From: Flavobacteriaceae bacterium
Lineage (GTDB): Bacteria > Bacteroidota > Bacteroidia > Flavobacteriales > Flavobacteriaceae
DNA length: 32,000 bases
NCBI GenBank assembly: GCA_965224465.1
Contig: OZ245049.1
Span: forward strand, 270,001 to 302,000
Direction of reading: 5' to 3'
This document shows, one piece after another, positions 327 to 29,638 of this stretch (within the stretch, counting starts at the first letter, position 1; every line of letters begins with the position of its first letter). The translations under genes and the position numbers were made by a program. Below the pieces are notes generated by a model that saw only the letters and a list, made by a program, of their open reading frames with translations, had not been told where the DNA came from and ran no database searches.

Positions 327-1058
327 ATGAGTGTATCTGATGATATAAAAAGAATTTTATGGCACGAAATGGGACATTTATGTGTCGATACTATAAAGAT
401 AGAAACACATAATAATCTAAAAGTTAACTTATTAAATTTAACTGTTGCTAATGACGGTTTATTTAAATGGAGTGGTTTCGTAGAAATGCTTCCGAGTTTA
501 CCTTTTAAAGATATCCCTATAAATCACTCAATATTAGCATATTCGCTAATTAGTTTACAGGCTGGTTGTGTATTTGAGACTATCTATTTTCAAATTATAA
601 AAGAAAATTCATCAATAAATTTTGGAGATTGTTTTTCTTTTAATAGAGAATGCATTGGGAATGGAGATTGGACAAATTATCATGAAATTTTATCAAAAAT
701 ACGCGAGATCCATCCTGAATTTCGTGGTAAACTTGATTTGAATGGCTATTTGGAAATTGATTTTTCTAGATTAGTAAATATTGCACTTTTCAAGTTGTCA
801 GAATTCATTACAAAAATGAATGAAATAATTGATAATGAAGTTATTAAAATAGAGAAAGACTTTACAGGAAGAGATGGGGCTCATGGAATATATAGCTATA
901 ATTATAGTGGAGATGAGTTAACTGAGTTGATTAATAGAATAATACCATTAATGAATGAATTAGGGTTTAGAGATACTCTAATGGAACTTCATGAGTCATT
1001 TATTAAAAAATTCAGTGATTACATAGACAAATATGACGTAAGGTATAATATTATGTAA
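327..1058 (+). CDS. hypothetical protein with N-terminal HExxH (zinc-metallopeptidase-like) motif
   Basis: 243-aa ORF. HEMGH at residues 13-17 (LWHEMGHLCV). No signal peptide or TM segment. Very AT-rich coding sequence. I recognise no other family signature. Confidence 0.6.
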   Translation: MSVSDDIKRILWHEMGHLCVDTIKIETHNNLKVNLLNLTVANDGLFKWSGFVEMLPSLPFKDIPINHSILAYSLISLQAGCVFETIYFQIIKENSSINFGDCFSFNRECIGNGDWTNYHEILSKIREIHPEFRGKLDLNGYLEIDFSRLVNIALFKLSEFITKMNEIIDNEVIKIEKDFTGRDGAHGIYSYNYSGDELTELINRIIPLMNELGFRDTLMELHESFIKKFSDYIDKYDVRYNIM

Positions 1059-1246
1059 AATAGAATCCCGAGGCTAAACTTAGTCTCATTTAATTTTAGA
1101 TAAAACAATAGGAGAAATAAAAATGCGCACTTCAAATAGTTAGTAATTCGATTCGTTAAGAGTTTCAATTATACAGAGTATTTTCAAAGAATTGATTGAG
1201 AATCACTTCTTTGAAATACCAATAATAAAAAAAGGAAAAAAGACGA

Positions 1247-1536
1247 GTTGAAAGACTAAAGTTAACAAGTGTATAGCACTTTTAAGCAAGGATTATGCAG
1301 TTGGGGAAATTTTATACTCTTGTGGTAATCCACGAGAATGGTGTGAATTTTTTTATAACGTACATTTTATCGAATACGCGATTTTTAATAAGAGCAAAAA
1401 GGTTAACTTTTATTTTGGCGTTGGCAAGCGGCTGGAAATTGTGGTTTAAAAATAATTGCATTAGCAATTTTGTTTTAAGCAAACAATCGAGTGTTTGGCA
1501 GCGGCTATTTTAAATACTATAGAATTATAACTATCA
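1247..1536 (+). repeat. paralogous ~290-bp noncoding element, copy 1 (candidate structured RNA or element 'head')
   Basis: Co-linear nucleotide similarity to 7407-7697 (blocks TTGAAAGAC, CAAGTGTATAG, AAATTTTATACT, TTGGCGTTGGCAAGCG, CAATCGAG, GAATTATAnCTA). The ORF called here (1295-1513) is not conserved in the paralog. Confidence 0.6.
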
Positions 1537-2218: not shown

Positions 2219-2890
2219 TTATAAAAACAGCACTTTTTTTACAACATCAAAATAACGAGCGCTAACAGGAATTTTAATATCATTAATAGTTAAATCTTTA
2301 CCAACTAAAGAAGTGACAGCCTTTTTATTAATAATATAAGAACGATGTACTCTCATAAACAATGATTGTGGCAAACTTTCTTCTAAAGACTTTAAAGTTT
2401 GATAACTCATTATTTTTTTACCTTTCATATAAAAAACCACATATTCACTATCGCTTTGTATATATAAAATATCAGTAAATTTTATCTTATGTAAATCATA
2501 ACCAGATTTAATAGTAATGAATTCATTATCGCCAACTTTGATTTTTGATTCTATTTTATTAACTGCTTGTAAAAAACGTTCAAAAGTAATGGGCTTTAAA
2601 AGATAGTCTAACGCATTCAGTTCAAAACCATCTAACGCATATTCAGAATAGGCAGTTGTAAAAATAATTTTAGTACTTGAGGGAATCATTTTAGCAAAGT
2701 CCGTACCTTTTAAATCAGGCATTTGTATGTCTAAAAGAACCACATCAACAACTTCACTATTGAGGATTTCCATTGCATTAATTGGGCTTTCAAATGAACC
2801 AACCAACTCTAAAAAACCAGTTTTATCTACATACATTTTTAGCAATGTTCTTGCTAATTCTTCATCGTCTATAATTACACATTTAAGCAT
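2219..2890 (-). CDS. LytTR/AlgR-family response regulator
   Basis: Receiver domain (IIDDE..., VVLLDIQMPDLKG) plus C-terminal LytTR-type DNA-binding region (FMRVHRSYIINKK). Overlaps the upstream kinase gene by 8 nt. Confidence 0.9.
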   Translation of the reverse strand: MLKCVIIDDEELARTLLKMYVDKTGFLELVGSFESPINAMEILNSEVVDVVLLDIQMPDLKGTDFAKMIPSSTKIIFTTAYSEYALDGFELNALDYLLKPITFERFLQAVNKIESKIKVGDNEFITIKSGYDLHKIKFTDILYIQSDSEYVVFYMKGKKIMSYQTLKSLEESLPQSLFMRVHRSYIINKKAVTSLVGKDLTINDIKIPVSARYFDVVKKVLFL

Positions 2891-3911
2891 CGTTATTAAG
2901 TTTTAATTGTAATCTCACATCAAACACCTCATTACTATCACTTATTTGCAACTGATGCTTTTCGGGATACAAAATACGCAATCTCTTTTTTACATTCTCT
3001 AATCCTATGCCACCAACAGCATCTTTTTCTTTCGGTGTTTTGGGAATGCTGTTTCTTACCGAAAAATTAATTGTGGAAGCATCTGCTTTTAAATCAATGG
3101 TTATAAAACTATCTTTTTGTTTTCCAATAGAACTGTGTTTAAAGGCATTTTCAATAAAAGGAATAAATAACATTGGAGCCAACTTAATAGCATTGTTTTC
3201 AACATTAAAATTAGTTGTAATATTAAAAGGTTTGCTGCTTTTTAAGTTAAACAATCTTATATAATTATTAATATAGTTCACTTCCTTATCTATAGCTACC
3301 AAATTTCGCACACAATCATATAAAACATAACGTAACATTTCTGATAAATAACTAATACTTTCTTGTGTTTTAGGTGAATTTATTACCGATAAACTATAAA
3401 TATTGTTGAGTGCATTAAACAGAAAATGTGGATTTATTTGCGACTTCAATAACTTTAACTCCGTTTGTAATTGTTCATTCTTATTTTGTATCGTTTCTTT
3501 CTCTTTTTCGATGGCATAATAGACACTTTCAATCACAGTTGCAAGAATAAAGGAAAACCCTAGCATTAAGGTGTGATTTATAAAACGTGAAGGTTTATGT
3601 GGTGGCGGAAGTGGCACTGCATTTTCAACAACTAAAATTGGTACTTCTGGTAACGGAAAAATAACTGTAATCAAGAAGGCACAACTTATAGTTAAAATAA
3701 TTCCTAATAGGATGAATTGTAAATGTTTCTTCTTAAACAGCAACTTTGGGGCTAAATACCATATAATTAAAATGATAAAGACGCATTGAACTATAAAAAG
3801 ACAAATAGTTTCTAGTATAAATATAGTTTTTCCTACTTGTGAATTTGCAATAAATATTGCAAAAATTAACCAAAGAACTACTTGAAATAAAATGCGTTTT
3901 TGTCTGTTCAT
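2883..3911 (-). CDS. LytS/His_kinase-type sensor histidine kinase
   Basis: Several N-terminal TM segments, the NPHFLFNALNNI H-box typical of LytS-like kinases, and a C-terminal ATPase region (GGIGLENVKKRL). The ORF track starts at 3938. The ATG at 3909-3911 (MNRQKR...) looks the more plausible start. Confidence 0.85.
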   Translation of the reverse strand: MNRQKRILFQVVLWLIFAIFIANSQVGKTIFILETICLFIVQCVFIILIIWYLAPKLLFKKKHLQFILLGIILTISCAFLITVIFPLPEVPILVVENAVPLPPPHKPSRFINHTLMLGFSFILATVIESVYYAIEKEKETIQNKNEQLQTELKLLKSQINPHFLFNALNNIYSLSVINSPKTQESISYLSEMLRYVLYDCVRNLVAIDKEVNYINNYIRLFNLKSSKPFNITTNFNVENNAIKLAPMLFIPFIENAFKHSSIGKQKDSFITIDLKADASTINFSVRNSIPKTPKEKDAVGGIGLENVKKRLRILYPEKHQLQISDSNEVFDVRLQLKLNNDA

Positions 3912-4101
3912 AGTACAAATAAAGTTAAAAAAAATCAAATGGAATCAAAAATCAGCGATTCAAACAATAGTAATATCTACCCTCAACCGAATATAAAACG
4001 GTATTCACTTAAAAGTTCTTTTCGTTTACTGAAAACCCAAAATAGGCATTAATCTATTGCTCATCTTTGAGGTCATAAACACGAAACAAAATTCTTTTAT
4101 T

Positions 4102-4380
4102 ATGAGACAAAACAGATTTAAAACAGGAATGATTGTAGTGATTTTCTTTTTCTTCGGAATTACAATTTCGCAAGCACAATCTAGCAGACAGAAACCACAA
4201 AAGCCACCAAGGTTTAGCGAACTATTAAAACAAATGGATGCTAACGAAGACAACAAACTTTCAAAAAAAGAAATAAAAGGTTCTTTAAAAAATAATTTTT
4301 CTAAAATTGACTCCAATGAAGATGGGTTTATTACTAAAAAGGAATTTCAAAAAGCCCCAAAACCTAAAAGAACAAGATAG
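4102..4380 (+). CDS. secreted EF-hand calcium-binding protein
   Basis: Signal peptide (MRQNRFKTGMIVVIFFFFGITISQAQ) and two canonical EF-hand loops, DANEDNKLSKKE and DSNEDGFITKKE. The track start at 4057 lies upstream of the signal peptide, so I prefer the internal ATG at 4102. Confidence 0.8.
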   Translation: MRQNRFKTGMIVVIFFFFGITISQAQSSRQKPQKPPRFSELLKQMDANEDNKLSKKEIKGSLKNNFSKIDSNEDGFITKKEFQKAPKPKRTR

Positions 4381-4410
4381 TTTACATAAACAATAAACAA
4401 ATACTTAATT

Positions 4411-5421
4411 ATGAAAAAATCAATTTTAAAAACAACAATAGGTACATTAGTTTTATTAATGGGTCTATTAGTTATATCGTGTTCAAGCGATGATGAAACT
4501 TCTCCAGAAGAAGTAGATACCTCAAGTCATATTTTTAAAGCCGAATTATTAAATTCCGCAAATCTGTTAAGTTCAGTAACATTGGTAGATGCTACTTTAA
4601 CAGACGGAACAACTGCTCAATGCTACAAATTAGTATTCAAAAGTAATCCAGTAGAAGATGGTCCATATTGTCCAGAAACTATTAATGATATTGGTGGAAT
4701 TGGTATTTATGATGGAGCAACAAATCCAGGACTACAAGTTTTAAAGGCAACCTTATGGAATGCTATGGAAGCCGATGGTTATGATATTGTAGATACTAAT
4801 GGTAATATTAATTATAATGACCCAGGAAGTGGAGTTATGCCATCTGGACCAAGTTGTTTAGGGGCAACTCCAAATAATAATTTAGAATTGACGTATTTGA
4901 TTCCTGCTATACCAAAAACAGGTACTTCTGTTGATCAAATTAACGTTGTAGAAAATGTAGGTGTCTCATATAATGGTATTCCTTTGACAGGAAATCCACC
5001 ATCAGTTGTAAATGGCCCTCCAGGAATGGGAGGACCTCCAGGAATGTCGGGAGGTAACATTCCATCTATTGATCCTTGTGGTGGACATATAGACCCATTT
5101 GGCTATTATCATTTGCATTTTGCTCCATCTGAAATGAATAATGTATTAGAAGCACACGATATTAGTGATGTAAGTTGTACAAATTTTACACAAAGTGAAA
5201 TAGCATTTGTTGGTTTTGCAAAGGACGGATATCCTATGTATGCTTCTAAGGACGAAAACGGAACATTACCATCAGATTTAGATGAGTGTCAAGGACATAC
5301 TGCACCTACGGCAGATTATCCTGAAGGAGTATATCATTATCATGCCTCTAATTCATCGGCTCCTAATTTCCCAACTTGTTTAAAAGGAGTATCGGCAGAA
5401 GATTCTTTAACGTATCAATAA
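4411..5421 (+). CDS. YHYH-motif domain lipoprotein
   Basis: Lipobox (LLVISC). Conserved blocks GYYHLHF, AKDGYPMY, LDECQGH and YHYHA match the uncharacterised YHYH protein family. Paralog of 6170-7072. Confidence 0.8.
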   Translation: MKKSILKTTIGTLVLLMGLLVISCSSDDETSPEEVDTSSHIFKAELLNSANLLSSVTLVDATLTDGTTAQCYKLVFKSNPVEDGPYCPETINDIGGIGIYDGATNPGLQVLKATLWNAMEADGYDIVDTNGNINYNDPGSGVMPSGPSCLGATPNNNLELTYLIPAIPKTGTSVDQINVVENVGVSYNGIPLTGNPPSVVNGPPGMGGPPGMSGGNIPSIDPCGGHIDPFGYYHLHFAPSEMNNVLEAHDISDVSCTNFTQSEIAFVGFAKDGYPMYASKDENGTLPSDLDECQGHTAPTADYPEGVYHYHASNSSAPNFPTCLKGVSAEDSLTYQ

Positions 5422-5427
5422 AAAAAG

Positions 5428-6066
5428 ATGAAAAAATTAATTTTAATAGTAGCATTGGTATTTGCAGTTTGCAATGCCAATGCTCATAATCCAGAAACAG
5501 CATCAGTTTATGTAAAGCCAATTAACGGAATTTGGGTAATGCAATTGTCGTTTTCGCAAACAGGTGTACATAATGCACTCACTAAATCTTATACAGATAT
5601 TGATTGGAATACGATATCAACTAATGAATACAAAACAAAATTTATTAGTTATTTAAAGGAGCATCTCGATTTAGATGTCGATGGTCAACATATTGCAATA
5701 ACTTCAGGAGGTATTAAACTAGGAAGTCATCAAACAGATGTAAAACTTTTGTTGCCTGATTTTCCAAATGAATTTAAAAGCGTAACAGCAAATTTTGATA
5801 TTCTTAATGAAAACTCAAATCAAAATACAGTGGTTAGTTTTCAGAATGGTGAAAAATCAGTTAGAAAAATATTGAATAATAAAAACGGCTTTTTAATTAG
5901 TTTTGATAATAGCGTTCAAGGTTTCAACTTGATTGATAATAAAACAAAAAGCAAATTTAATTATTTGTATGTGATTTTTATAGTAGGTGTTATTTGTTTA
6001 GGAGTCTATTCGCTTTTTATTTATAGAAAAAGAAAAGAGTCGACACCAAATTTGGTAATACAATAA
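5428..6066 (+). CDS. hypothetical secreted protein with C-terminal membrane anchor
   Basis: Signal peptide ending ANA|H, so the predicted mature N-terminus is His. Single C-terminal TM (YLYVIFIVGVICLGVYSLFIY) followed by RKRK. The gene starts 7 nt after the upstream stop, so it is probably operonic. Confidence 0.7.
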   Translation: MKKLILIVALVFAVCNANAHNPETASVYVKPINGIWVMQLSFSQTGVHNALTKSYTDIDWNTISTNEYKTKFISYLKEHLDLDVDGQHIAITSGGIKLGSHQTDVKLLLPDFPNEFKSVTANFDILNENSNQNTVVSFQNGEKSVRKILNNKNGFLISFDNSVQGFNLIDNKTKSKFNYLYVIFIVGVICLGVYSLFIYRKRKESTPNLVIQ

Positions 6067-6169
6067 TTAATGATGAGATAAAACGAGAAAATAATTTTCA
6101 GTAACTTTATGATTATGAATGTGTGCAATTATGAAAACATCTGAAAATGTTAACTTTTAAAACAAAAAA

Positions 6170-7072
6170 ATGAAAAATTATCTATATTTAGCAATAACCA
6201 TAGTGATAGTAGGTTGTAATTCTCATACGAGTAAGAAAAGTTCAAAAACTGAATTAAAAACAACTAATCTCGCAGAATTAAATTTCACTAAAAATTACGA
6301 AATCATTAGTAAAGAATTTAAAACTGAAACGTATGTTACAGTTAATGCTACTAATAGAATTATGAAAACCAATGGTTTGCCAAATCATAAAACTGGAATT
6401 TTCCCTAATGAAGGAAATCCTAATACTATTTCGGCTCAAAATTTAACGTATAAATTTCCTGTGAATCCTAAATTTAGTAAAGAATCTAAATGGGCAAGAG
6501 AACCAGGTGTTGCGCTAAATGGTATTAAATTTGAACCAGAAACTGCTGAAAGATTTGTTTGTGAAACAGGAGAAGTATACAAAATTGAAGCTTTTCAAGA
6601 ATTAGTAGATATTGGACTTGATTTTAATCGTGCACACGTTCAACCAACAGGAGCTTATCATTATCACGGAGTTCCTACTGAATTAATAAAAGTACTAGAT
6701 AAAGGAAAAGATATTATTTTGATTGGATATGCAAAAGATGGCTTTCCAATTTATCATTCTAAAAGCGGAAAATATAAACCAAGCTATCAATTGGTTAAAG
6801 ATTTAAGAACTGGAGATATATGTTCTTACAAAAACCCTAAATTAACCCTAAATGAAAGTTTAAAAGACACCAAACCAGATGGAACTTTTGTTTCAGATTG
6901 GGAATACGTAAACGGATTAGGCGATTTGGATGAATGCAATGGAATAGAATTGAACGGAGAATACTCTTATTTTGTCACGAATGAATATCCATATATGAGT
7001 AGGTGTTTAAAAGGTGAATTTATTGAAGAAGCTCCAAAAGGACCACCTCCAGGTCAACATCCTCATAAATAA
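6170..7072 (+). CDS. YHYH-motif domain lipoprotein (paralog)
   Basis: Lipobox (IVIVGC). Blocks GAYHYHG, AKDGFPIY and LDECNG shared with 4411-5421. Pro/Gly/His-rich C-terminus (PKGPPPGQHPHK). Confidence 0.8.
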   Translation: MKNYLYLAITIVIVGCNSHTSKKSSKTELKTTNLAELNFTKNYEIISKEFKTETYVTVNATNRIMKTNGLPNHKTGIFPNEGNPNTISAQNLTYKFPVNPKFSKESKWAREPGVALNGIKFEPETAERFVCETGEVYKIEAFQELVDIGLDFNRAHVQPTGAYHYHGVPTELIKVLDKGKDIILIGYAKDGFPIYHSKSGKYKPSYQLVKDLRTGDICSYKNPKLTLNESLKDTKPDGTFVSDWEYVNGLGDLDECNGIELNGEYSYFVTNEYPYMSRCLKGEFIEEAPKGPPPGQHPHK

Positions 7073-7406
7073 GATATAAATTAAAAATTCTTAGGTAGTT
7101 TTTTAAAACGACCTCATAAAACTTTGGTTAAACAATAGGAGAGTGGAGCGTCTATATTTTAGGGATTTAGTAACTAATATTTTTGGTTTTTCTAAATATG
7201 AAAGCAAGTTATTTATAGTATTGGTTTGTTACAATGTTTCCTGAAATATAGCGTAACGAACCGTAATTGTTTCCAAAGTTTTTGTGCAGTCTTGATTTTT
7301 TTATTTCTTTTTTTATTAAGAAAAAAAGATAAGAATGAAAAGATTGAGAGTTCAAAAGTTGAATTTCTATTTTACATAATATTAATAGTTACAATTTAAA
7401 AAAGTT

Positions 7407-7697
7407 CAATTGAAAGACGAAACGAGCAAGTGTATAGAAATTTTAAAGCGTAGATAATGCGGTTGAAAATTTTATACTGTTGCGTAAAGTTTACTAAATG
7501 TTAATGAGATTTTTTTACAACGAGAAGATCAATGCAATTCCTGAATTTAATTAGAAGCTAAAAGGTTTTGCTTTTTTTGGCGTTGGCAAGCGATGGATAA
7601 TTGTGTTTAAAAAAATTACTGCGACAGCATAATTATTTTTAAAAAGCAATCGAGCGTTTGCGAGCGGCAATTTTACATAATGACGAATTATAGCTAC
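7407..7697 (+). repeat. paralogous ~290-bp noncoding element, copy 2
   Basis: Same ordered sequence blocks and nearly the same length as 1247-1536. No ORF of 60 aa or more is called here. Confidence 0.6.
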
Positions 7698-7849
7698 AAA
7701 TGTATAAACGGAAAGTTTCTGAGAATCGCGTATTTAAAAATACTTAAAACCATTGTACAGAATATTAGATTTAAACGTACTATTAAAACACTAATATTTG
7801 ATGACCCAAGTAATACGGTTTATTATGTGTACAGAACATTCTGGGATAT

Positions 7850-7922
7850 TTAACATAATATAGAATTATAGCTATCTAATTTTAATGAAATGGATTTGTA
7901 CTATAATTTACATTATGTTAAA
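7850..7922 (+). repeat. long hairpin homologous to the hairpin of the 1557-2028 tandem units
   Basis: TTAACATAAT (7850-7859) pairs with ATTATGTTAA (7913-7922). AATTATAG (7864-7871) pairs with CTATAATT (7901-7908). The flanks TTAACATAATAT...ATTATGT(G)TAAATAG match the tandem-unit hairpin, but the interior differs. Confidence 0.5.
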
Positions 7923-8451
7923 TAGAAATAGTTACATAACATATGCTATCCTTTTGTTCGAAATCTTAAACGTTTGAAAACGGATACTGTGTTTTTGAGA
8001 ATCAGATATTATGGACCACACTGCGTATTTATTAATCTATAAGATTCTCAGATCGATAGTTATTCAATATATAAAATCCTGTCTACGTTTACATAGTTAC
8101 AACGAATAGATAATCCCTACGGATTACAACATCTTAGAATTATATTAACTATAAAGAAAGCAATTAAGTTCATAGATGTATAATACAAACTAAAATGATC
8201 AGTATAAATTATTTTTGTACGTTCTAGTGTTGGTGAAAAATAATTCTAGTACTAAGCACTAAACCGTCTCAGTTGGAAATTTATTTGGGATTAATACAAC
8301 AATCGCCAATGTCTATATCAATTGATAACTTATTAGTTATTGACTATGTGGATCAAAAATGCACAAGAATTTAGCCATTATCTGCATTTCTTCTATTGGA
8401 TGTCAATTAACAAAATTAAAACCCGCATACTAACAGTTTAGTGAGTGGCAG

Positions 8452-8634
8452 TTATTGCTCAATACTTTCTACTTGAAAACAGGTACATTCACCTTCTTGG
8501 TAGTGCACAGAAACCTGGATTGGATTACAGCAAACCTCACAGTCCTCTATATAAACCTGTTCCCTTATAGAAGGATCTAAAAGCATACTTATTTGTTCGT
8601 TACAATAAGGGCAAAAAAAGGGATGTTCTTCCAT
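8452..8634 (-). CDS. CPXCG-motif cysteine-rich (zinc-ribbon-like) small protein
   Basis: CPYC ... CEVCC cysteine pairs in a protein of about 60 aa, as in the CPXCG family. The start at MEEHPFF (8634) is preferred over the track start at 8655. Confidence 0.65.
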   Translation of the reverse strand: MEEHPFFCPYCNEQISMLLDPSIREQVYIEDCEVCCNPIQVSVHYQEGECTCFQVESIEQ

Positions 8635-8911
8635 AATAAATGATAATCTAACCATAAAGATACATTATTTTAAAGAAGCCTCTATACGAATCAACTATAT
8701 TATACAGCTGATCAAGTAATTAAAAAAAACACAATCAAATCAATGTTCAATAAATGTAACTACTACAACTGTAAAACCTTTATATAAGCATCTTGAACAC
8801 GCATGATTTTGGTTTAAAATTGGTATACCTAGGTGCTTTCTGACAGTATAACAATAAGAATCATTCAAAAAAAACTAACTTAGGAACAAAACCATTATTT
8901 AATTTACAAGT

Positions 8912-9475
8912 ATGAGATATTTAGGTCGTTTTTTTATAGCAATTGATCAATTGGGAAATGTATTAGCAGGAGGAAATCCCGACAATACAATCTCCTCACG
9001 TGTTGGCTATTACAACAGTCGGAATTATACCGAATCTCAGGTGGCTTGGCAATGGCGTTTTTTTGAACAAATTATTGATGTTACCTTCTACCCTATTGAC
9101 GGCCCTAATCATTGCCACGAAGCGTATTACAGCGATTCAGGTGAAGTATTTGATGAAAACACAAAAAACGAATTACTTGTGTTTTTATCCGCCATAATCA
9201 TTATTCCTAGCTGTATAATTATTGGGTTTTTTTTATATAGTTTGTATGTGTTTGGTGTGGTTTCCCCAAAACAAATCAACAGAAATAGCGAAGTGAAAAA
9301 TCGCTTAAAAACAGTCAAATCCAAATTAGATGGTACTTTACACGAATTGAATGACCACATAGTGAAGGTAGATGTAGAAATGTTAGAAAAGGCATTAGCT
9401 ACACAGCAATCATGCAAACAATTACTCGTAAAAATTAAAGAAATGTTGGATTTAAAAGCGCACTCAAAACAGTAA
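8912..9475 (+). CDS. hypothetical membrane protein
   Basis: 187-aa ORF. N-terminal soluble region, one central TM (LLVFLSAIIIIPSCIIIGFFLYSLYVFGVV) and a C-terminal coiled-coil-like Lys/Glu-rich tail. No family recognised. Confidence 0.6.
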   Translation: MRYLGRFFIAIDQLGNVLAGGNPDNTISSRVGYYNSRNYTESQVAWQWRFFEQIIDVTFYPIDGPNHCHEAYYSDSGEVFDENTKNELLVFLSAIIIIPSCIIIGFFLYSLYVFGVVSPKQINRNSEVKNRLKTVKSKLDGTLHELNDHIVKVDVEMLEKALATQQSCKQLLVKIKEMLDLKAHSKQ

Positions 9476-9489
9476 AAACAAGCGTGATT

Positions 9490-10689
9490 CTATTTAAAAA
9501 CCCGATACCATAGATATATTAATAAAGACAGTCCTCCACATATAGAAAACCCAACAAACATGGGCAATGCAGTCGTATGGATAAAACTTCCTATAAGTAT
9601 GCTAATTGGTACAGCGAGCATTGTAGCAATAAAACCGGTAACCGCCGCCCCTATTCCAGCAATATGTCCTATGGGTTCCATCATTAGAGCACGTGTATTT
9701 CCAAAAATAAATCCTAGCATAAAAAATTGAAGTCCAAAAAAAACGATAAGAATCACCACAGGTGGATTTTCTGATTGATAAAACAAAATGATATAGAGAA
9801 CAGAAATTAGAAAAAAACCAAGCAATGCAGTTCTCAAAAGTTTTTCCATTCCTAATTTTACAACAAGTTTTCCGTTGATAAATGTGGCACTTCCTACGGT
9901 CATAGCAAGACATGCAAATATAAAAGGAAAGGCATCTACCAATCCGTATTGTTGTTGAAAAACCTGCTGTGAGGCACTTAAATAGACCATAAATGCCCCC
10001 GTTATTAATGCTGATACAAAGGTAAATGCGACTGTTTGTCTGTGTTTAAAAACTTCACGAGTTCCTTGTAGAATAACTCCTAGAGTAAACGGAACTCTGT
10101 TTGCTGCCAAAAGGGTTTCTGGTTGTCGCTTTGAAAACCAAAAAGCAATGATTACTGCAGCAATACATTGTATATAAAAAATGGCTTGCCAGGAAAAGGC
10201 ATCTAAAATAAATTTCCCTAATGCGGGTGCTATGGTAGGAATTATTAAAAAAACAACGGTTACAAAAGACATTATTTTAGCCATATAATTCCCTTTATAA
10301 GTATCTCTAATAATAGAAATACTTACGGTTCTAGAAGCCGAAAGCCCGATTCCTTGTAGGATACGACCCGCAATCATTATTTCTAGATTCTTAGAAAAGA
10401 TACATATTAAACTAGCTATTATGTATACCAAAATCCCTATGTAAACAACCTTTTTACGTCCAATCGTATCCGATAACGGCCCAAAAAACAATTGTCCAAC
10501 TCCTAAGCCAAAAAAAATCATTGTAATTAGTAATTGTCCATCATTAACATGGCGAATGCCAATGTCGGCACCTATTTCTTGGAGTCCGGGTAACAATGCA
10601 TCTATTGATAAGGCAACCATTGCCATTAAGGATGCCATTAATGCGATAAATTCTAATTGGGATATTTTTTTCGTATTCATTGACTGCAA
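9490..10689 (-). CDS. MFS transporter, Bcr/CflA-like drug efflux family
   Basis: About 12 predicted TM helices and an MFS motif-A-like GPLSDTIGRKK between TM2 and TM3. Size and pattern are typical of Bcr/CflA exporters. Confidence 0.85.
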   Translation of the reverse strand: MQSMNTKKISQLEFIALMASLMAMVALSIDALLPGLQEIGADIGIRHVNDGQLLITMIFFGLGVGQLFFGPLSDTIGRKKVVYIGILVYIIASLICIFSKNLEIMIAGRILQGIGLSASRTVSISIIRDTYKGNYMAKIMSFVTVVFLIIPTIAPALGKFILDAFSWQAIFYIQCIAAVIIAFWFSKRQPETLLAANRVPFTLGVILQGTREVFKHRQTVAFTFVSALITGAFMVYLSASQQVFQQQYGLVDAFPFIFACLAMTVGSATFINGKLVVKLGMEKLLRTALLGFFLISVLYIILFYQSENPPVVILIVFFGLQFFMLGFIFGNTRALMMEPIGHIAGIGAAVTGFIATMLAVPISILIGSFIHTTALPMFVGFSICGGLSLLIYLWYRVFK

Positions 10690-13825: not shown

Positions 13826-13831
13826 ATATAT

Positions 13832-13924
13832 AACCTCTGGGCAAGCCCCTGAGGCATCAAAAAGAAAAAAACCTTAATCATTTCGATGTAAGTATCAGGA
13901 ATTAAACCCACTGATGGGATTAAA
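13832..13924 (+). repeat. 93-bp REP/MITE-like element, copy 1
   Basis: CCTCTGGGCAAGCCCCTGAGG hairpin, then CATCAAAAAGAAAAAAACCTTAATCATTTCGATG, then GAATTAAACCCACTGATGGGATTAAA hairpin. Related to 14008-14096, 18378-18469 (reverse orientation) and 29545-29638. Confidence 0.85.
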
Positions 13925-13972: not shown

Positions 13973-14007
13973 GTACTCCTACCCTACTCTTATTCTACAA
14001 AGTCAAT

Positions 14008-14096
14008 ATCCTCTGGGCAAGCCTCTGAGGCATCAAAAAGAAAAAAATCTTAATCATTTCGATGTAAGCATATGGGAATTAAACCTCCCTGTGAGT
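14008..14096 (+). repeat. REP/MITE-like element, copy 2
   Basis: Same element as 13832-13924. The 3' hairpin is degenerate (AAACCTCCCTGTGAG). Confidence 0.8.
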
Positions 14097-18660: not shown

Positions 18661-20163
18661 TTATTTATCAACAGGCTTCCAATTTTGAGGCAGTAACTCC
18701 GAAAGTTTATTAGCCTTATGTTCTGGTAATCTATTAAGGACATCACATAGCCACGTATGTGGGTTTACGTTATTCTTTTTGCAAGTAGCAAAAAAGCTAT
18801 AAAATAGAGCTATGTTTTGTGCGGACTCATGACTGCCAGCAAAGAGATAATTTTTTCTGCCAATAGCTAAAGGTCTTATGGCATTTTCTATATTATTGTT
18901 GTCTATTTCAAACCTGCCATCATCGATGTATAGTTTTAGGTTTTGCCATATTTTAAGAGTATAAGCAATTGCTTTTCCTATGGCACTTTTAGGCAGTACG
19001 TTTTTTCGCTCTTTTGTAAGATAAATTTCTATTCCGTCTAAAACAGGTGATGCATGTTTTTCTCTATATGCTTTAGTTTGCTCAATAGTTAATTCTTGTT
19101 CTTTTATTTTACGTTCTATCTTGTATAGCTTTTGAATTTCCAACAAAACAACATCCGCTCTTTTAGGATCATTATCCAGCGCCTTCTCAAAATACCGCCT
19201 AGCATGAGCCATGCAACCTAAAAGAGTAATTTCTCCTTTTGTTGTTAAGTTTTGGTATGCAGCATACCCATCGGACTGTAGTGTCCCATTGAAATCTTTA
19301 AAAAACTCTTCTGGAACAACTTTTCCTCTCCCTTTATTGTATTCAAAAAGAACTAAATTTTTAACAGGATTTCGATACACCCACATATACCCTCTGTGTG
19401 TTGATTTTTTCTTGTCTTTATCTAAAACCTTTATAGGAGATTCGTCTGCTTGAATATAATTGGCATTTTCTAAAAACTGAGCCTTAAATGTATCGTATAA
19501 AGGAGCGATAAGCTCCGAACTTTTAGATACCCATCCTCCAATTGTTGATTTACTTACTTTTAAATCTTGTCGTTTAAAAATTTGAATTAATCTGTAAAGT
19601 GGTAAATGGTCTACAAATTTTGAAATAAGTATAAAGGCCAATAAACTTGCTGATGCATTTCCTTTAGGTATCGGTAAGCTTGGTAATTCTGCTATAACAA
19701 CGCCTTTTTCTTCCGGAAGTGCATATTTAGGTCTTACAATTCGTCTTACAAAAACGGAAAGAGGCGTTATTTCTAAAAGTTCTGTAACTTCTTCTCCTAT
19801 TTTTACAGCTCCTTCTTCTATGTGCTTAGGCTCTATAATCTCTTCTACTCGCGGAAAATGCGCAGGTATAGAAGAGCGAACAGGTTTTTTCTTTCCTTTC
19901 TTCTTTTGTTTTCTTTCGTAGATTACAATATGTTTTTTGTATGCCTCTTCTTTCTCAGCTATTATTTTTCCGAAAAGCGACAATTGATTTGTGTCAACAG
20001 GGATAAAACGTTCGCTTTTAGACCCGAAAACCATTCTTTTAAGCTGCTCGTATTGCTGCTTAATTTCAGCTAGTTCTTGAGCTGTTTTTTCAAGTTCAAT
20101 CTTTAAAATTACCAGCTCTTTTTGTATGTCTATTGTATTGTTTTCCACACTATAAATATACAA
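18661..20163 (-). CDS. tnpC: IS66-family transposase TnpC
   Basis: 500 aa. N-terminal coiled-coil/leucine-zipper-like region, a DDE-region pattern (IQADESPIKVLD) and a C-terminal region typical of IS66 transposases. Confidence 0.9.
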   Translation of the reverse strand: MYIYSVENNTIDIQKELVILKIELEKTAQELAEIKQQYEQLKRMVFGSKSERFIPVDTNQLSLFGKIIAEKEEAYKKHIVIYERKQKKKGKKKPVRSSIPAHFPRVEEIIEPKHIEEGAVKIGEEVTELLEITPLSVFVRRIVRPKYALPEEKGVVIAELPSLPIPKGNASASLLAFILISKFVDHLPLYRLIQIFKRQDLKVSKSTIGGWVSKSSELIAPLYDTFKAQFLENANYIQADESPIKVLDKDKKKSTHRGYMWVYRNPVKNLVLFEYNKGRGKVVPEEFFKDFNGTLQSDGYAAYQNLTTKGEITLLGCMAHARRYFEKALDNDPKRADVVLLEIQKLYKIERKIKEQELTIEQTKAYREKHASPVLDGIEIYLTKERKNVLPKSAIGKAIAYTLKIWQNLKLYIDDGRFEIDNNNIENAIRPLAIGRKNYLFAGSHESAQNIALFYSFFATCKKNNVNPHTWLCDVLNRLPEHKANKLSELLPQNWKPVDK

Positions 20164-20206: not shown

Positions 20207-20560
20207 TTATTTAGCCTCTAAATAACGTTCGTTTTTCTGAGTATTTATAATACTAATTCCGTCTAAAACCATAACCATTTGGGTATAACTCAAAACTACT
20301 AATCCATCTTCAATGTCGTATTTTGGAAGCTCAAAAATACCTCGTTCCAATCGTTTATAATACAGTACAAATCCTCCAGGTCGCCAATGAAGAAGTTTTA
20401 GTTTATTTTTTTGCTTATTGATAAATGCATAAACACTATTTCTATCTCGCTCTTGTTCCATGTGCTCACTAACTAATCCACTTAATCCATTAAATCCTTT
20501 TCGCATATCAACTGCAGATAAGTGATAATAATACGTGTGTTCTGTACCTAATCCTAACAT
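20207..20560 (-). CDS. tnpB: IS66 Orf2-like accessory protein TnpB
   Basis: 117 aa. MRKGFNGLSGLV...KLKLLHWRPGGFVLYYKRLERGIFELP matches the IS66 Orf2 family pattern. Confidence 0.9.
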   Translation of the reverse strand: MLGLGTEHTYYYHLSAVDMRKGFNGLSGLVSEHMEQERDRNSVYAFINKQKNKLKLLHWRPGGFVLYYKRLERGIFELPKYDIEDGLVVLSYTQMVMVLDGISIINTQKNERYLEAK

Positions 20561-23047: not shown

Positions 23048-24358
23048 TTACACAATAGATACGCGTACTTTCTTTTTCTTTAGTCGTGAATTGTTTAGAT
23101 TACTTACCAATTGATCTGCTATTTTTTTAGGAACGGCTACAAATGCACAATCCTGTTTCAGTTCTATCACTCCAAGTTGATCTTTAGTCAAGTTGCCTTG
23201 TTTAAAAAACAATCCAGCAATATCTCCTTTAGAAATTTTGTCTTTTCTACCACCAGAAATAAATAAAGTCACCCATTTTGGTGCTTTTCTTGTGCTTTTT
23301 TCCGATAATTTTATCACTTTAGAATTGTGTATAAAATCGGGTAAACGATCATCTTTGTGTTTTAAAACATAGGCTGTCCCAGACTCGTCTACACGTGCTG
23401 TACGCCCATTTCTATGGGTAAACTCTTCCTCTTTTAAAGGCAATTGATAATGTATAATAAACTTTAAAGCTGGAATGTCTATCCCACGTGCCGCTAAATC
23501 TGTAGCTACAATTATTTGATGCGTTCCATTTCTGAATTTTATCAAAGAACGTTCTCTGTCCTTTTGCTCCATTCCTCCGTAAAAACAACCGTGTTTGATG
23601 CCTTTCTCGTCTAAATAACGACTGACATCACTTATTGTGTCTTTTAGATTACAAAATACAATACCAGGCGTATTCCCAACATGATTTAAGACATCAACCA
23701 AAATCTGCATTTTATTTTTAGAGGGAGACATCACTGTTTGAAGAGTCAGGTTGGAACTGCGTTTCTTTAAGAAATTCACCACTGTATGCTTTCCTAATTT
23801 CGCAAATTCAGGAATTTCCAATTCTTGGGTAGCAGAGGTTAAAATCCGTTTGTCAATACTTGGTAATTCATGAATTATCCCACGCATTTCATATTCAAAA
23901 CCAACTTCTAAAGACTTGTCAAACTCGTCCAAAACCAATGTTTTAATAAAGTCCCTAGAAAAACGCTCACGACTAAAATGATCCGCAATACGTCCAGGTG
24001 TTCCTATTAAAATTGCGGGCGTGTGTTTCAATTCTATTTTGTCCTTAGACATGGCTCTTCCTCCATATACCGCATTTACTTTATACCCAGAGCCAAGTTC
24101 TCTAACTACTTGCTCTATTTGAATAGCCAACTCTCTAGAAGGTACTAAAATTAATGCCTGCACCTCTTTACTTGCTGGATCTAATCGATCGATTAGCGGG
24201 AGTAAAAACGCCAAGGTTTTTCCTGTTCCAGTAGGCGATAAAATAACGACATTACTATGTGATTCTATGGCTTCCAGTGCTTTATTCTGCATTGGATTCA
24301 ACTCCTTGATATTTAATTTATCAAGCATTTCTTGCTGATGTTTTATTGTATTTGCCAT
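23048..24358 (-). CDS. DEAD-box-family RNA helicase with DbpA-like C-terminal domain; motif II is DEFD
   Basis: Motif I SPTGTGKT, motif II VLDEFD, SAT, and motif VI HRNGRTAR. The C-terminus (WVTLFISGGRKDKISKGDIAGL...) resembles the DbpA RNA-binding domain. The start at MANTIK (24358) is preferred over the track start at 24394, which overlaps the upstream gene. Confidence 0.85.
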   Translation of the reverse strand: MANTIKHQQEMLDKLNIKELNPMQNKALEAIESHSNVVILSPTGTGKTLAFLLPLIDRLDPASKEVQALILVPSRELAIQIEQVVRELGSGYKVNAVYGGRAMSKDKIELKHTPAILIGTPGRIADHFSRERFSRDFIKTLVLDEFDKSLEVGFEYEMRGIIHELPSIDKRILTSATQELEIPEFAKLGKHTVVNFLKKRSSNLTLQTVMSPSKNKMQILVDVLNHVGNTPGIVFCNLKDTISDVSRYLDEKGIKHGCFYGGMEQKDRERSLIKFRNGTHQIIVATDLAARGIDIPALKFIIHYQLPLKEEEFTHRNGRTARVDESGTAYVLKHKDDRLPDFIHNSKVIKLSEKSTRKAPKWVTLFISGGRKDKISKGDIAGLFFKQGNLTKDQLGVIELKQDCAFVAVPKKIADQLVSNLNNSRLKKKKVRVSIV

Positions 24359-24359
24359 C

Positions 24360-25706
24360 TTATTTTTTCTTCTTTTTCTTTGTTGATTTATCACTGACCA
24401 CAGCGCTAGTACCTGTTTGATTTACCAGGTAATGTGCCAGTACTTTTTCTACCAATTCCTCTTTTGTTAAATGATGAAATATCGTGTGTATTTGTTTTTT
24501 AAACTGAGCTGTTACCTCTCTATTGGGCTTAATTTTAAAAATTTTCTTAGCCCATAACAAACCGTTATTTTCTTCAATACTTTGAGCATCGGCTTTTTTA
24601 AATTTAGAAAATTTAATGCCCAATGCTTTTTCAAAATCATTAATATCTTCTTCCTCTTCCTTTTGCAATACAGTCAGAGAGAAACCTTTGGCTCCTGCCC
24701 TAGCCGTTCTTCCACTTCTGTGAACATAAGTTTCGTAAACTTCTGGTAAATGGTAATTCACAACATAGGAAATTTCCTTTATATCAATACCACGAGCAGC
24801 TAAATCTGTAGCGACCAATATGTTTATTTGTCCCATTCTAAACTGCCCCATAATACGATCTCTAATCCCTTGGCTTAGACTTCCATGTAAAGCGCCAGAA
24901 GAGAATTTATTAATCGCTAAATTCTTTGCCAATTTATTCACTGCAGCTTTGGTTTTGCAAAAGATAATTCCGCGTTCACCTTCCCTCGAAGTTAAGAAAT
25001 GCATCAATACATCCAATTTTTCTATAGGTGCTACAACTACATATTGATGGTCTATTCCTTGATGACCAACAGTTTCCATATCTGCACTTACTTGCGTAAC
25101 ATGCTTGGACATGTAATTTTGAATTAATTGCTTGATATTTCCTGGCATGGTAGCCGTAAACAGTAGCGTACGGTATTTTTCTGGCAATACCGCTACAATT
25201 TTATCCAAGCCATCTTTTAAAGAAGTAACCATTTCATCAGCCTCGTCCAAAACCAAATAATTGGTGTTTTTAAGATTGACGTTATTTCGTTGAATTAAAT
25301 CTATTAAGCGCCCTGGAGTGGCTACAATTATATGTGTGGCTTCTTTAAGACGTTCAATTTGAGGCTTGATAGGAACCCCTCCACAAATGGATGCGATAGA
25401 TACTGCTGGAAGCTGACTCGCAAAAGAAACTAAATTTGTATATATCTGTTGTCCCAACTCGCGTGTTGGAGCAAGAATCACTGCTTGTATTTTTGGGTTT
25501 TCTGGATCAATTAATTGCAGTAAAGGCACACCAAAAGCAGCTGTTTTCCCCGTTCCTGTTTTTGCCAATCCAACAAAATCATCTTCTTGATTTAATAAAA
25601 CGGGAATTGATTTTTCCTGAATGCTTGTAGGTATGGTAATCTTAAGTTTGGCTAAGCCTAAAACTAAAGAAGAGGAAACTCCTAAAGCGGCAAATTGTTG
25701 TGACAT
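24360..25706 (-). CDS. DEAD-box ATP-dependent RNA helicase
   Basis: Motif I AKTGTGKT, DEAD (VLDEADEM), TAT and HRSGRTARAG. Lys-rich C-terminal tail (KSTKKKKKK). Confidence 0.9.
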   Translation of the reverse strand: MSQQFAALGVSSSLVLGLAKLKITIPTSIQEKSIPVLLNQEDDFVGLAKTGTGKTAAFGVPLLQLIDPENPKIQAVILAPTRELGQQIYTNLVSFASQLPAVSIASICGGVPIKPQIERLKEATHIIVATPGRLIDLIQRNNVNLKNTNYLVLDEADEMVTSLKDGLDKIVAVLPEKYRTLLFTATMPGNIKQLIQNYMSKHVTQVSADMETVGHQGIDHQYVVVAPIEKLDVLMHFLTSREGERGIIFCKTKAAVNKLAKNLAINKFSSGALHGSLSQGIRDRIMGQFRMGQINILVATDLAARGIDIKEISYVVNYHLPEVYETYVHRSGRTARAGAKGFSLTVLQKEEEEDINDFEKALGIKFSKFKKADAQSIEENNGLLWAKKIFKIKPNREVTAQFKKQIHTIFHHLTKEELVEKVLAHYLVNQTGTSAVVSDKSTKKKKKK

Positions 25707-25910: not shown

Positions 25911-26093
25911 TCAATTCACGAATGCTGTCATACCAAATACATTTCCAAGTGACGGTTTAGAAATGGAATTATTTTTTGTTATAGCTAGGCGGAAAACTTG
26001 AGGATAGCCTTTGCTATCGTTCCTTTTTTCAACAATGCTAGTACGTAGTACAAACAATTTATATCGGTCATTTTGAATTGTAGTTGGTGGCAC
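25911..26093 (-). pseudogene. possible N-terminal (Arm-type DNA-binding) fragment of a tyrosine integrase
   Basis: YKLFVLRTSIVEKRNDSKGYPQVFRLAITKNN loosely resembles the N-terminal beta-rich Arm domain of Bacteroidota integrases. The ORF stops after 60 aa and there is no room for a catalytic domain before the helicase gene. The DNA at 25979-26088 is repeated at 27974-28108. Confidence 0.25.
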
Positions 26094-26334
26094 AAATAGA
26101 ACCGTGGTAGCCAGGAGTTAAACCTGCTTTTCCAAAAACCACAAAGATTTACACCAAGACCATCGAAATAAATAATAAAAAAATAGTTGGACCGCTTGAA
26201 AATTTAAAAAATTTGAATACTTTTAACAAAAAACTCACATAACCCGAGACTATTATAATATAACGGAAATAACGTTACGTTTTGGAAGTTTATTGATGAT
26301 ATATGGGTGTTGGCCACAACCCAAACAATAATCA

Positions 26335-27973: not shown

Positions 27974-28108
27974 TTATAGCTAGGTGAAAAATGGAAGGAT
28001 AGCCATTAATTTGCTTACTGAGCCTTTGCTGAAGTATCATTCTGTTTTTTAACAACGCCAGCACATAAAACAAACTATTTATATCGATCATTTTGGATTG
28101 TAGTTGGT
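27974..28108. repeat. diverged copy of the 25979-26088 segment
   Basis: Shared blocks TTATAGCTAGG, GGATAGCC, CCTTTGCT and ATTTATATCG(G/A)TCATTTTG(A/G)ATTGTAGTTGGT. The minus-strand frame reads IPTTIQNDRYK*, compared with PPTTIQNDRYKLF in copy A. Confidence 0.7.
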
Positions 28109-29323: not shown

Positions 29324-29476
29324 GCATGGTATGTCAAAAACACCTTAGGACATGCCTCTACTCAGACAACAGCCATTTACACTAAAACTATCGAAATAAA
29401 TACGGGACCTCTTAAAATTTTAAAAAAATTAGATATCTTTAACAAAAATACCAATTTACCCCCATCCAATTTATAG
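29324..29476 (+). pseudogene. C-terminal remnant of a tyrosine recombinase/integrase
   Basis: AWYVKNTLGHASTQTTAIYTKT matches the box II end (LGH-x-s-x-x-TT-x-IYt) that contains the catalytic Tyr. The frame is closed by TAA at 29300-29302, so upstream catalytic residues are absent. Confidence 0.55.
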
Positions 29477-29544
29477 GTATAACGGATATACCCTCAACTT
29501 TAAGGTTGTTATTTTGGATATAAGGATGTTGGCTTATAAATAAT

Positions 29545-29638
29545 AACCTCGGGGAAAGCCCACGAGGTATCAAAAAGAAAAAAATCTTAATCATTTCGAT
29601 GCAAGCATCGGAGAATTAAACCCACTGGTGGGATTAAA
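29545..29638 (+). repeat. REP/MITE-like element, copy 4
   Basis: CCTCGGGGAAAGCCCACGAGG hairpin, a conserved A-rich core, and the AAACCCACTGGTGGGATTAAA hairpin. Confidence 0.85.

Follow-up and report, generated by a model that had tools for sequence, protein, structure and literature searches.

A strand-specific stem-loop in a conserved non-coding region beside dif-type sites of Flavobacteriaceae

Why should a bacterial genome carry the same long hairpin twice within a few kilobases, each time with a different apex, in stretches that seem to encode nothing? The question is raised by a region of 32,000 nucleotides (nt) from a Flavobacteriaceae bacterium (assembly GCA_965224465.1, contig OZ245049.1, positions 270,001–302,000 of the forward strand), which we call the window and to which all coordinates refer. 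An initial annotation of this region had described a hairpin bracketed by direct repeats, and had likened it to a protein- or recombinase-recognition module or to a guide RNA; the sequences that it quoted are all present where it placed them. We report here that the hairpin, named H, is a strand-specific, structurally conserved stem-loop, and that, in Flavobacteriaceae, the non-coding region containing it is located on the XerC-arm side of dif, the site at which the recombinases XerC and XerD resolve chromosome dimers. We judge it very probable that H is part of a non-coding module linked to dif.

H is found on the + strand at positions 1417–1505 (copy 1) and 7579–7668 (copy 2). On this strand only, each copy forms a single long hairpin of about 30 base pairs. 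In copy 1, an inner hairpin (1438–1488) is flanked by GCGTTGGCAAGCGGC (1418–1432) and GTGTTTGGCAGCGGC (1491–1505). The basal helix pairs GCGUUGGCAAGCG with the complementary stretch in 1490–1505 (AGUGUUUGGCAGCGGC) and is surmounted by a middle helix and then by the variable apical helix AAUUGC/GCAAUU. Copy 2, with its inner hairpin at 7599–7651, has the same architecture and an apical helix AUUACUGC/GCAUAAU. The predicted RNA folding energies of the + strand are −33.6 kcal/mol for 1410–1510 and −33.4 kcal/mol for 7572–7672 (z = −4.4 and −4.2), and none of 200 shuffled sequences was as stable, whereas the minus strands of the two copies reach only −16.7 and −14.6 kcal/mol. With DNA parameters, H keeps the same fold and the same strand asymmetry, more weakly than with RNA parameters (−17.4 and −21.0 versus −10.9 kcal/mol; z = −2.9 and −3.8 versus −1.0 and −0.2). 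Two statements of the initial annotation are borne out by these folds: the hairpin is preserved in both copies, with the added property of being + strand specific, and the apical stems differ between the copies while remaining paired. The direct repeats said to bracket it were a misreading. The sequences concerned, GCGUUGGCAAGCGGC and GUGUUUGGCAGCGGC, are the two strands of the basal helix, and are part of the hairpin because the fold pairs them with each other through G-U (G-T) wobbles. The basal helix itself covaries, as described below, in agreement with a paired rather than a bracketing role.

To collect homologues, one genome per species was scanned with the pattern GGCGTTGGCAAGCG-N45-75-ATCGAG, which matched at least 120 stretches. 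The high-GC matches were set aside as chance. Among the matches listed, to which all counts of genome loci refer, 48 low-GC loci carry H, making 50 copies with the two of the window. These loci, labeled below with L-numbers, are nearly all assigned to Flavobacteriaceae (Aquimarina, Zobellia, Maribacter, Tenacibaculum, Lacinutrix, Algibacter, Flavivirga, Formosa, Croceitalea, and others). A covariance model built from 14 sequences recovers copy 1 (1415–1507, 77.9 bits) and copy 2 (7577–7670, 81.5 bits), and in total finds 56 forward-strand copies in these loci and the window. In this first sample, whose 5′ arm is fixed by the design of the scan, 97.5% of cells are paired versus 89.8% in shuffles, and double-sided changes occur at 14 pairs. 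Metagenomes were then scanned with an anchor limited to the final six hairpin bases and the adjoining site (AGCGGCNATTTTACATAA), which leaves the 5′ arm unconstrained. This second scan added 62 copies. Double-sided changes affect 22 of their 30 pairs, 10 of the 11 in the basal helix among them, and pairing amounts to 96.8% versus 87.7% in shuffles. Such a result was reached by none of 500 shuffles in either sample, and sliding the partners lowers pairing to 28–52% across samples (30–52% in the metagenome sample). Both alignments were fitted to the covariance model, and these percentages consequently lean towards pairing, which counts against taking them at face value; we nevertheless consider the covariation safe because of the effect size and the controls.

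Altogether, compensatory changes preserve the fold in more than 110 homologues of H from Flavobacteriaceae genomes and metagenomes. All helices of H covary, and examples from the basal helix are CTATGCG/CGCATAG, GGCTATGCG...CGCATAGGC, and GGCCAAG...TTGGCC. The comparison of homologues, which the initial annotation had itself proposed as a means of overturning the hairpin, has instead upheld it. Many exchanges turn a G-C into a G-U pair, with the G staying on the 5′ arm. The base of H is nearly invariant in sequence across genera and is kept in natural variants in which the apex is swapped for an unrelated GC hairpin (L141) or deleted (L207). At gathering thresholds, neither the window nor 18 related loci match any Rfam family, and permissive scans (E up to 10) of both intergenic regions returned chance-level matches only. 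The element has no BLAST match in phage and plasmid collections, and a pattern scan of viral contigs gave five matches, all high-GC chance ones. No ORF (open reading frame) spans H consistently, small-protein coding having been checked.

Each copy of H is embedded in a larger conserved block on the + strand, delimited by BLAST against the 48 Flavobacteriaceae loci at about 1043–2205 (copy 1) and 7099–7940 (copy 2). Each block follows + strand genes and occupies a long stretch devoid of any convincing ORF. The core measures about 0.5 kb, and the block 0.8–1.2 kb with its flanks. Block 2 ends in a site of 11-6-11 organization, TTGTACTATAA-TTTACA-TTATGTTAAAT (7896–7923, + strand), the sole perfect match to a dif with a 6-nt spacer in the 32 kb, for a chance expectation of 0.11. 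A dif sequence has been predicted for Gramella forsetii, TTGTACTATAATTTATATTATGTAAAAT, as well as for Flavobacterium johnsoniae, F. psychrophilum, and Cytophaga hutchinsonii (Kono et al. 2011; PMC3025954 supplement). The site of the window shares 26 of 28 positions with the G. forsetii prediction and likewise 26 of 28 with that of C. hutchinsonii. In the flank consensus of the family, the last of three sites reads TTGTACTATAATTTATATTATGTAAAAT, identical over 28 of 28 positions to the predicted G. forsetii dif and also close to the predictions for F. johnsoniae, F. psychrophilum, and C. hutchinsonii. With its 28 bp, its palindromic inner arms (..ATAA-N6-TTAT..), and its closeness to the dif of relatives, 7896–7923 fits the sequence definition of a chromosomal dif.

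Two further dif-like sites, both inverted (minus strand), with perfect arms and a 7-nt spacer, separate H from dif in block 2: S1, TGTAGCTATAA-TTCGTCA-TTATGTAAAAT (7670–7698), and S2, GATAGCTATAA-TTCTATA-TTATGTTAAAT (7848–7876). The XerD-type arm of S1 begins 2 nt after H copy 2, and this gap is 1–2 nt in most loci. The same order is found in about 40 loci: H, 1–2 nt, S1 (inverted, 7-nt spacer), approximately 90–150 nt, S2 (inverted, 5- or 7-nt spacer), approximately 20–130 nt (typically about 37), and dif (6-nt spacer). The block is always located 5′ of the XerC-type arm of the canonical site. The S2/dif region (7840–7930) folds with the arms paired and the center unpaired (z = −4.4 for the + strand, −5.2 for the minus strand), and a global fold of 551 nt shows dif paired with S1. 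The idea of a recombinase-recognition module is sustained to the extent that H abuts three XerC/XerD-type sites, dif among them; that a recombinase would contact the hairpin itself is not suggested by these sequences. On the far side of dif, seven or more genera have an MFS transporter gene. In at least six other genera it follows dif in the same direction; in the window it is inverted (9490–10689) and starts about 1.6 kb from dif, after an ORF resembling a CPXCG zinc ribbon (8452–8655, minus strand) and an ORF of unknown function (8912–9475). In the chromosome record of Tenacibaculum maritimum, dif stands at 49.4% of the sequence, a position that faces the origin only on condition that the record begins there.

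The sites of block 1 differ. Copy 1 of H is followed by an S1-like site, GATAGTTATAA-TTCTATA-GTATTTAAAAT (1507–1535, minus strand), with three mismatches to the site consensus, two of them in the XerD-type arm. The end of the copy 1 block bears, by direct reading, a second class of site with a 9-nt spacer, ATGTACTATAA-TGTTCTGCG-TTATGTTACTT(TGCTTGGG) (2035–2065, + strand). This class (in the window ...TTATGTTACTTTGCTTGGG) recurs in L083, L180, L115, and other metagenome loci. At the 5′ edge of block 1, an XerD-arm-like half-site TTATGTAAAAT (1051–1061, + strand) overlaps the last codons and the stop codon of ORF 327–1058 (243 aa, no Pfam match), and a full dif-like site occupies the equivalent place in L004.

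Upstream of H, a second hairpin, P1, is present in copy 1 (1266–1322, + strand; CAAGUGUAUAG...UAUACUCUUG) and in copy 2 (7427–7482, + strand). In an alignment of 38 loci, four of its nine pairs are compensatory; one of them, for example, is UA in 18 sequences and CG in 18. In 34 of 44 loci, the 250 nt upstream of H also form a more stable fold on the + strand. For H itself, the + strand fold is more stable than that of the minus strand in all 44 loci, with mean energies of −32.9 and −16.4 kcal/mol, that is, a mean advantage of 16.5 kcal/mol. Downstream of the S1-like site, block 1 contains three tandem units of 157–158 nt (1554–2028, + strand; 88% matches), each with a near-perfect hairpin formed by inverted XerD-arm-like sequences (AACATAATATCTGACGATATAAGTC / GACGTTATATCTGATATTATGTG) and two smaller hairpins. 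Homologous units exist in L028, L064, L117, and L121 (T. maritimum). They may be duplicated S2/dif-type site pairs. Tandem small genes and type III toxin–antitoxin RNA were considered for these repeats and rejected: there is no downstream toxin ORF, and inverted XerD-arm-like sequences are present instead. A leader of ribosomal or transfer RNA was discarded likewise, no such gene being present. The site of the 9-nt class is followed by a conserved 3′ module (2061–2199, + strand) with a terminator-like hairpin at 2062–2084, which is also found alone in other loci. Finally, a short ORF lies between S1 and S2 (7798–7863; MMTQVIRFIMCTEHSGIFNII), with a counterpart at the equivalent place in at least 15 loci. 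Its product (MTQV...) reads MTQVPIILMKTNASGIFYII in other loci, and a second form is MTLLVIRLKATNARDILHNRII; the ORF may encode a micro-protein or be a by-product of nucleotide conservation or of an RNA helix (ACCCAAG...CUUCUGGG).

How did two blocks come to stand on the same side of a single dif? Direct repetition of the block with different genes in between is seen in the window and in L025, L038, L064, L083, L100, L049, L062, L121, and L122, and metagenome contigs hold up to three copies in 15 kb. Each locus has one canonical site with a 6-nt spacer, and in the seven multi-copy loci that are informative it invariably comes after the last block; the blocks before the last terminate in decayed sites or in sites of the 9-nt class. 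Dif-like sites at the ends of direct blocks are found in the window (1051–1061, 2035–2065, and 7896–7923) and in L004, L025, L038, L083, L100, and L121. Stacks of modules at dif have been termed IMEX arrays (integrative mobile elements exploiting Xer) or dif modules, and their layout, direct modules bounded by dif or dif-like sites with no integrase in sight, is that observed here. The genes between the blocks, identified by Pfam or by PADLOC (gene models for anti-phage defence), differ from one locus to the next without being related. Those of the window (2219–7072) encode a response regulator of the LytTR type and a histidine kinase, an EF-hand protein, two YHYH proteins, and one further product with a weak match to DUF6702, below the cutoff. 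The same LytTR cassette follows a block in L025. Among other cassettes, L064 holds PD-Lambda-2 A and B together with PDC-M28B, T. maritimum has a type II methyltransferase alongside HATPase and HEF_HK proteins, and Flavivirga eckloniae carries caspase, LRR-EAD11, and MksE-like proteins.

No integrase figures among the recurrent ORF families of the 48 loci, nor do their cassettes hold a recurrent Rep, relaxase, or phage gene family. In the window, there is no xerC or xerD gene, and the ORFs scanned or read include no recombinase gene and no tyrosine recombinase. The most informative comparison is offered by L052, in which an H region of the copy 1 type, 92.7% identical to that of the window, is directly followed by S1, S2, dif, and the MFS gene, the latter being only 66% identical in DNA sequence to that of the window. 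Judged from its sequence, L052 looks like the arrangement before the 5.9-kb module of the window (genes 2219–7072 and block 2) was added; it is the sole insertion comparison and a cross-species one. Integration at dif through XerC/XerD has been proposed for Flavobacterium single-stranded DNA phages and Bacteroidales microviruses (PMC9719478, PMC3091885). The layout suggests that the arrays probably arose by Xer-mediated insertion of modules at dif.

Among 379 flanking ORFs searched for a recurrent partner, only a hypothetical protein of 136–146 aa recurs (eight loci). Its gene, absent from the window, is often located just upstream of the block near dif (L038, 6339–6779; L121, 10001–10411; L122, 10001–10411; and others). 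The protein has 329 database homologues, in Flavobacteriaceae only among the matches listed, and no Pfam match. Structure prediction places its fold closest to the Hjc Holliday-junction resolvases of archaea and to PvuII, i.e., a PD-(D/E)XK fold, and the match is weak (mean pLDDT 78; Foldseek probability 0.99–1.0, E = 6e-3, TM-score 0.5–0.6).

What, then, might H do at this place? Our best overall explanation, which we hold with about even confidence, is that of a dif-linked block in modules stacked by Xer recombination, with H acting as a folded + strand, most likely as RNA. Modules made of cargo, block, and dif-like site would be added one after another at dif by the host XerC/XerD. Copy 1 would be the resident block, its sites decayed or of another class, and the genes 2219–7072 with copy 2 would form a later module now bearing the active dif. 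Beside the Xer sites, H would act in cis as the 3′-terminal stem-loop of a structured transcript running from P1 to H and ending at the U-rich stretch provided by the XerD arm of S1 (GCGGC-UAUUUUACAUAA). As a result, + strand transcription would be stopped at the edge of the Xer-site cluster, which would insulate it, or a cis-acting RNA would be placed beside the cluster. We prefer RNA because the basal helix needs G-U pairs, because the 250 nt upstream fold better on the + strand, and because P1 covaries. The stem of H is directly followed by the U-rich UAUUUUAC, supplied by S1, and five of the eight bases of the tail TATTTTAC after the stem are T. The more specific proposition that H works as an RNA terminator or insulator is tentative, and we consider it possible rather than probable.

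Several observations weigh against this explanation. A simple terminator scan did not flag H, and inspection by eye revealed no convincing Bacteroidetes-type promoter upstream of P1 or H. Sequence conservation is unusual in terminators, yet the base of H hardly varies from one genus to another. In L105, L114, L023, L083a, and L004, 60–80 nt are inserted between H and S1, leaving no U-rich tail. In hairpin-less relatives, tandem direct repeats of GCGNTGG replace H, which suggests that the sequence itself is read. The mobility of the modules is inferred from their layout alone, and the GC skew of the window, dominated by gene orientation, does not alone mark 7.9 kb as the terminus. Two ideas examined along the way were abandoned: that a hairpin always abuts S1 in insertion variants, as seen in only one of four, and that TTGGCAAGCG contains a sigma-54 promoter (TGGCAC-N5-TTGC), which by eye has the wrong spacing and no −12 element.

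The same folded strand might be DNA. H would then be a folded single strand or an extruded cruciform serving as an accessory structure for Xer recombination, the + strand folding when exposed in replication or in a single-stranded module and positioning or regulating XerC/XerD on S1. Such a role would suit a hairpin that ends 1–2 nt before the XerD arm of S1 in most loci and whose conserved base carries a variable, replaceable, or deletable apex. The strand asymmetry survives DNA parameters, dif can form with the inverted S1 or S2 a forked hairpin resembling attP(+) of CTX-phi, and a protein of Hjc-like fold is often encoded just upstream in other genomes. The proposed integration of single-stranded DNA phages at dif in this group (PMC9719478, PMC3091885) points the same way. 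However, the basal helix leans heavily on G-T pairs, which are weak in DNA, the cassettes contain no recurrent rolling-circle Rep, relaxase, or phage gene, the element was not found in phage, plasmid, and viral-contig collections, and the Hjc-like match is weak and concerns a gene that is not in the window. To our knowledge, moreover, no Xer system has a separate hairpin beside its core site. We regard the folded-DNA explanation as rather unlikely. The near invariance of the base could alternatively mean that GCGNTGG(CA) is a double-stranded binding site for an accessory protein of the dif region, the pairing being secondary. H contains about four occurrences of the motif (GCGTTGGCAA, GCGATGGATAA, GCGTTTGGCA, and GCGGC), and lies on the XerC-arm side of dif, as do the accessory sequences of cer; those of cer and psi carry ArgR, PepA, and ArcA sites. 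In the hairpin-less relatives, three to four tandem direct repeats of the motif abut the same XerD arm, and the motif recurs farther downstream, again on that strand. Against this, 10 of 11 basal pairs in the unconstrained sample show compensatory double changes, which a motif read purely for its sequence would not need; the + strand fold is favored by about 16 kcal/mol in each of 44 loci; and outside H the motif occurs at approximately chance frequency in the 32-kb window. Protein binding alone is, in our opinion, quite improbable. As for the direct-repeat motif of the initial annotation, its repeats are helix halves in the window, and what stands is that the motif sequence may be read, given its tandem direct repeats in the hairpin-less relatives. 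These are metagenome contigs of unknown taxonomy with a GC content of 0.26–0.38 (L170, L150, L209, L129, L132, L246, L159, L180, and L241), in which the three to four GCGNTGG(CA) preceding the XerD-type arm are followed by a tight inverted dif-like pair ending in ...TAGCTTKGGG. A KOPS-like polar motif was also envisaged and dismissed, as GCGNTGG is not enriched outside H and stands on the same strand on both sides of the sites in relatives.

A block without present function would be easier to reconcile with its spread. As a selfish or relic repeat, either MITE-like (resembling a miniature inverted-repeat transposable element) or a decayed backbone, it could have been distributed by horizontal transfer and gene conversion; it is near-identical across genera (92.7% for the H region versus 66% for the neighboring MFS gene in the comparison with L052), it occurs in multiple copies and in shuffled modules, and it has insertions in some. 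But the compensatory changes in H and P1 and the strict order and spacing of H, S1, S2, and dif in about 40 loci imply selection on structure and arrangement, and we judge this explanation very improbable. There remains the guide-RNA-like architecture suggested by the initial annotation, in which H would be part of an omega RNA, bridge RNA, or CRISPR-like guide for a nuclease or recombinase. The general look of a structured RNA with repeats fits, and Rfam returned a weak match to CRISPR-DR6 at 7388–7416, which is at chance level (E = 0.69; 19.7 bits versus a gathering score of 39). No Cas, TnpB, IscB, or IS110 gene is present in the window, none is recurrent in the 48 loci, the element has no hypervariable guide-like segment, and neither HEARO/omega RNA nor any other Rfam family matches. 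With no effector gene, no variable segment, and no Rfam match, a guide RNA is effectively refuted.

The region is best appreciated against known Xer-dependent and hairpin-based systems, among them the plasmid sites cer of ColE1 and psi of pSC101. In cer, a cis-acting non-coding region of about 180 bp on the XerC-arm side yields the small structured Rcd RNA, and the spacer is 8 bp. The region described here shares with cer and psi both a conserved non-coding sequence beside the XerC arm and spacers other than 6 bp (8 bp in cer, 7 or 5 in S1/S2), but it measures 0.5–1.2 kb, is chromosomal, adjoins dif, and has two extra inverted dif-like sites and long covarying hairpins. Rcd is only a loose precedent, as the putative RNA here runs towards the core site. 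IMEX arrays at dif include CTX-phi, TLC-phi, and RS1 in Vibrio cholerae and the gonococcal genetic island. Like them, the modules described here are integrase-less and stacked directly at dif, with one terminal site being canonical; unlike them, they have a non-coding shared backbone, a cargo of ordinary accessory or defence genes, and a mobility that is putative. The inverted dif-like pair folds into a hairpin with paired arms and a mismatched center, as does attP(+) of CTX-phi. However, the 48 loci contain no recurrent phage or Rep gene family, no Xaf (DUF3653) gene is present, neither the loci nor the phage and viral collections point to a single-stranded form, and H, outside the inverted pair, has no CTX-phi counterpart.

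The pdif modules of Acinetobacter plasmids are also bounded by XerC/XerD-like sites in both orientations. They are plasmid-borne and carry resistance or toxin–antitoxin genes between bare 28-bp sites of alternating orientation, whereas only here is the site accompanied by a large structured non-coding region with a hairpin, and the cargo consists of defence or other accessory genes. Integron attC sites resemble H in being strand-specific hairpins of 60–140 nt with a conserved base, bulges, and a variable paired apex, located between gene cassettes. They are handled by a tyrosine recombinase related to Xer, and their R″/R′ boxes (RYYYAAC...GTTRRRY) are inverted. In contrast, both arms of H carry GTTGGCA or GTTTGGCA (GTTGG type) in direct orientation, no IntI gene was seen, and the recombination sites appear to be the separate dif-like sites and not the hairpin. 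With intrinsic terminators, H has in common a GC-rich helix base followed by the U-rich UAUUUUAC and + strand specificity; it differs by its far greater length (about 30 bp with internal loops), by a base conserved across genera, and by variants devoid of a tail. In no family compared here is a conserved, covarying 90-nt hairpin combined with two inverted pseudo-dif sites as a constant feature of the locus, and the literature searched yielded no description of such a hairpin/pseudo-dif region.

The remainder of the window contains other repeats and mobile elements. Three copies of an 80-nt repeat, 83–88% identical (13830–13909, 14006–14085, and 29543–29622), consist of a GC-rich hairpin (CCTCTGGGCAAGCCCCTGAGG) followed by an A-rich stretch, and lie upstream of a TonB-dependent receptor-like ORF (14549) and of ORF 29628. 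This family may serve as a common regulatory leader, or it may be a small repeat element. Repeats of 34–74 nt (74–82% identical; 25979–26245, 27974–28108, and 29350–29461) flank an IS30-like transposase ORF (26628–27632) and may be duplicated flanks or remnants of the ends of the element. Judged from the translations, the minus strand also encodes an IS66-family transposase (18661–20163) with a small TnpB-like partner (20207–20560). Two adjacent, overlapping DEAD-box helicase paralogues of 448 aa each follow on the minus strand (23048–24394 and 24360–25706); their internal similarity was also picked up by the repeat finder.

A more far-reaching possibility is that the arrays represent an unrecognised integron-like system of cassette capture at the chromosome terminus, present in Flavobacteriaceae and, in a hairpin-less form, in other Bacteroidota. 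The platform formed by P1, H, and the two inverted pseudo-dif sites with spacers other than 6 nt would, as RNA or folded DNA, control XerC/XerD at dif. Platform-bearing modules, many with anti-phage defence systems, would be stacked and exchanged between genera, and the small Hjc-like protein of PD-(D/E)XK fold might resolve Holliday-junction intermediates. We consider such a system unlikely. In model organisms, 28 bp and FtsK suffice for Xer recombination at dif. If a structured element and two pseudo-dif sites are fixed at dif throughout the family, the control of Xer recombination may differ from that of these models. The H-S1-S2-dif signature provides a simple marker for dif and for the adjoining variable region, and a defined RNA or DNA element. 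The arrays mark the presumed terminus as a hotspot of variable genes, including defence systems, without a dedicated integrase, and bear on the exchange of accessory genes among marine Flavobacteriaceae.

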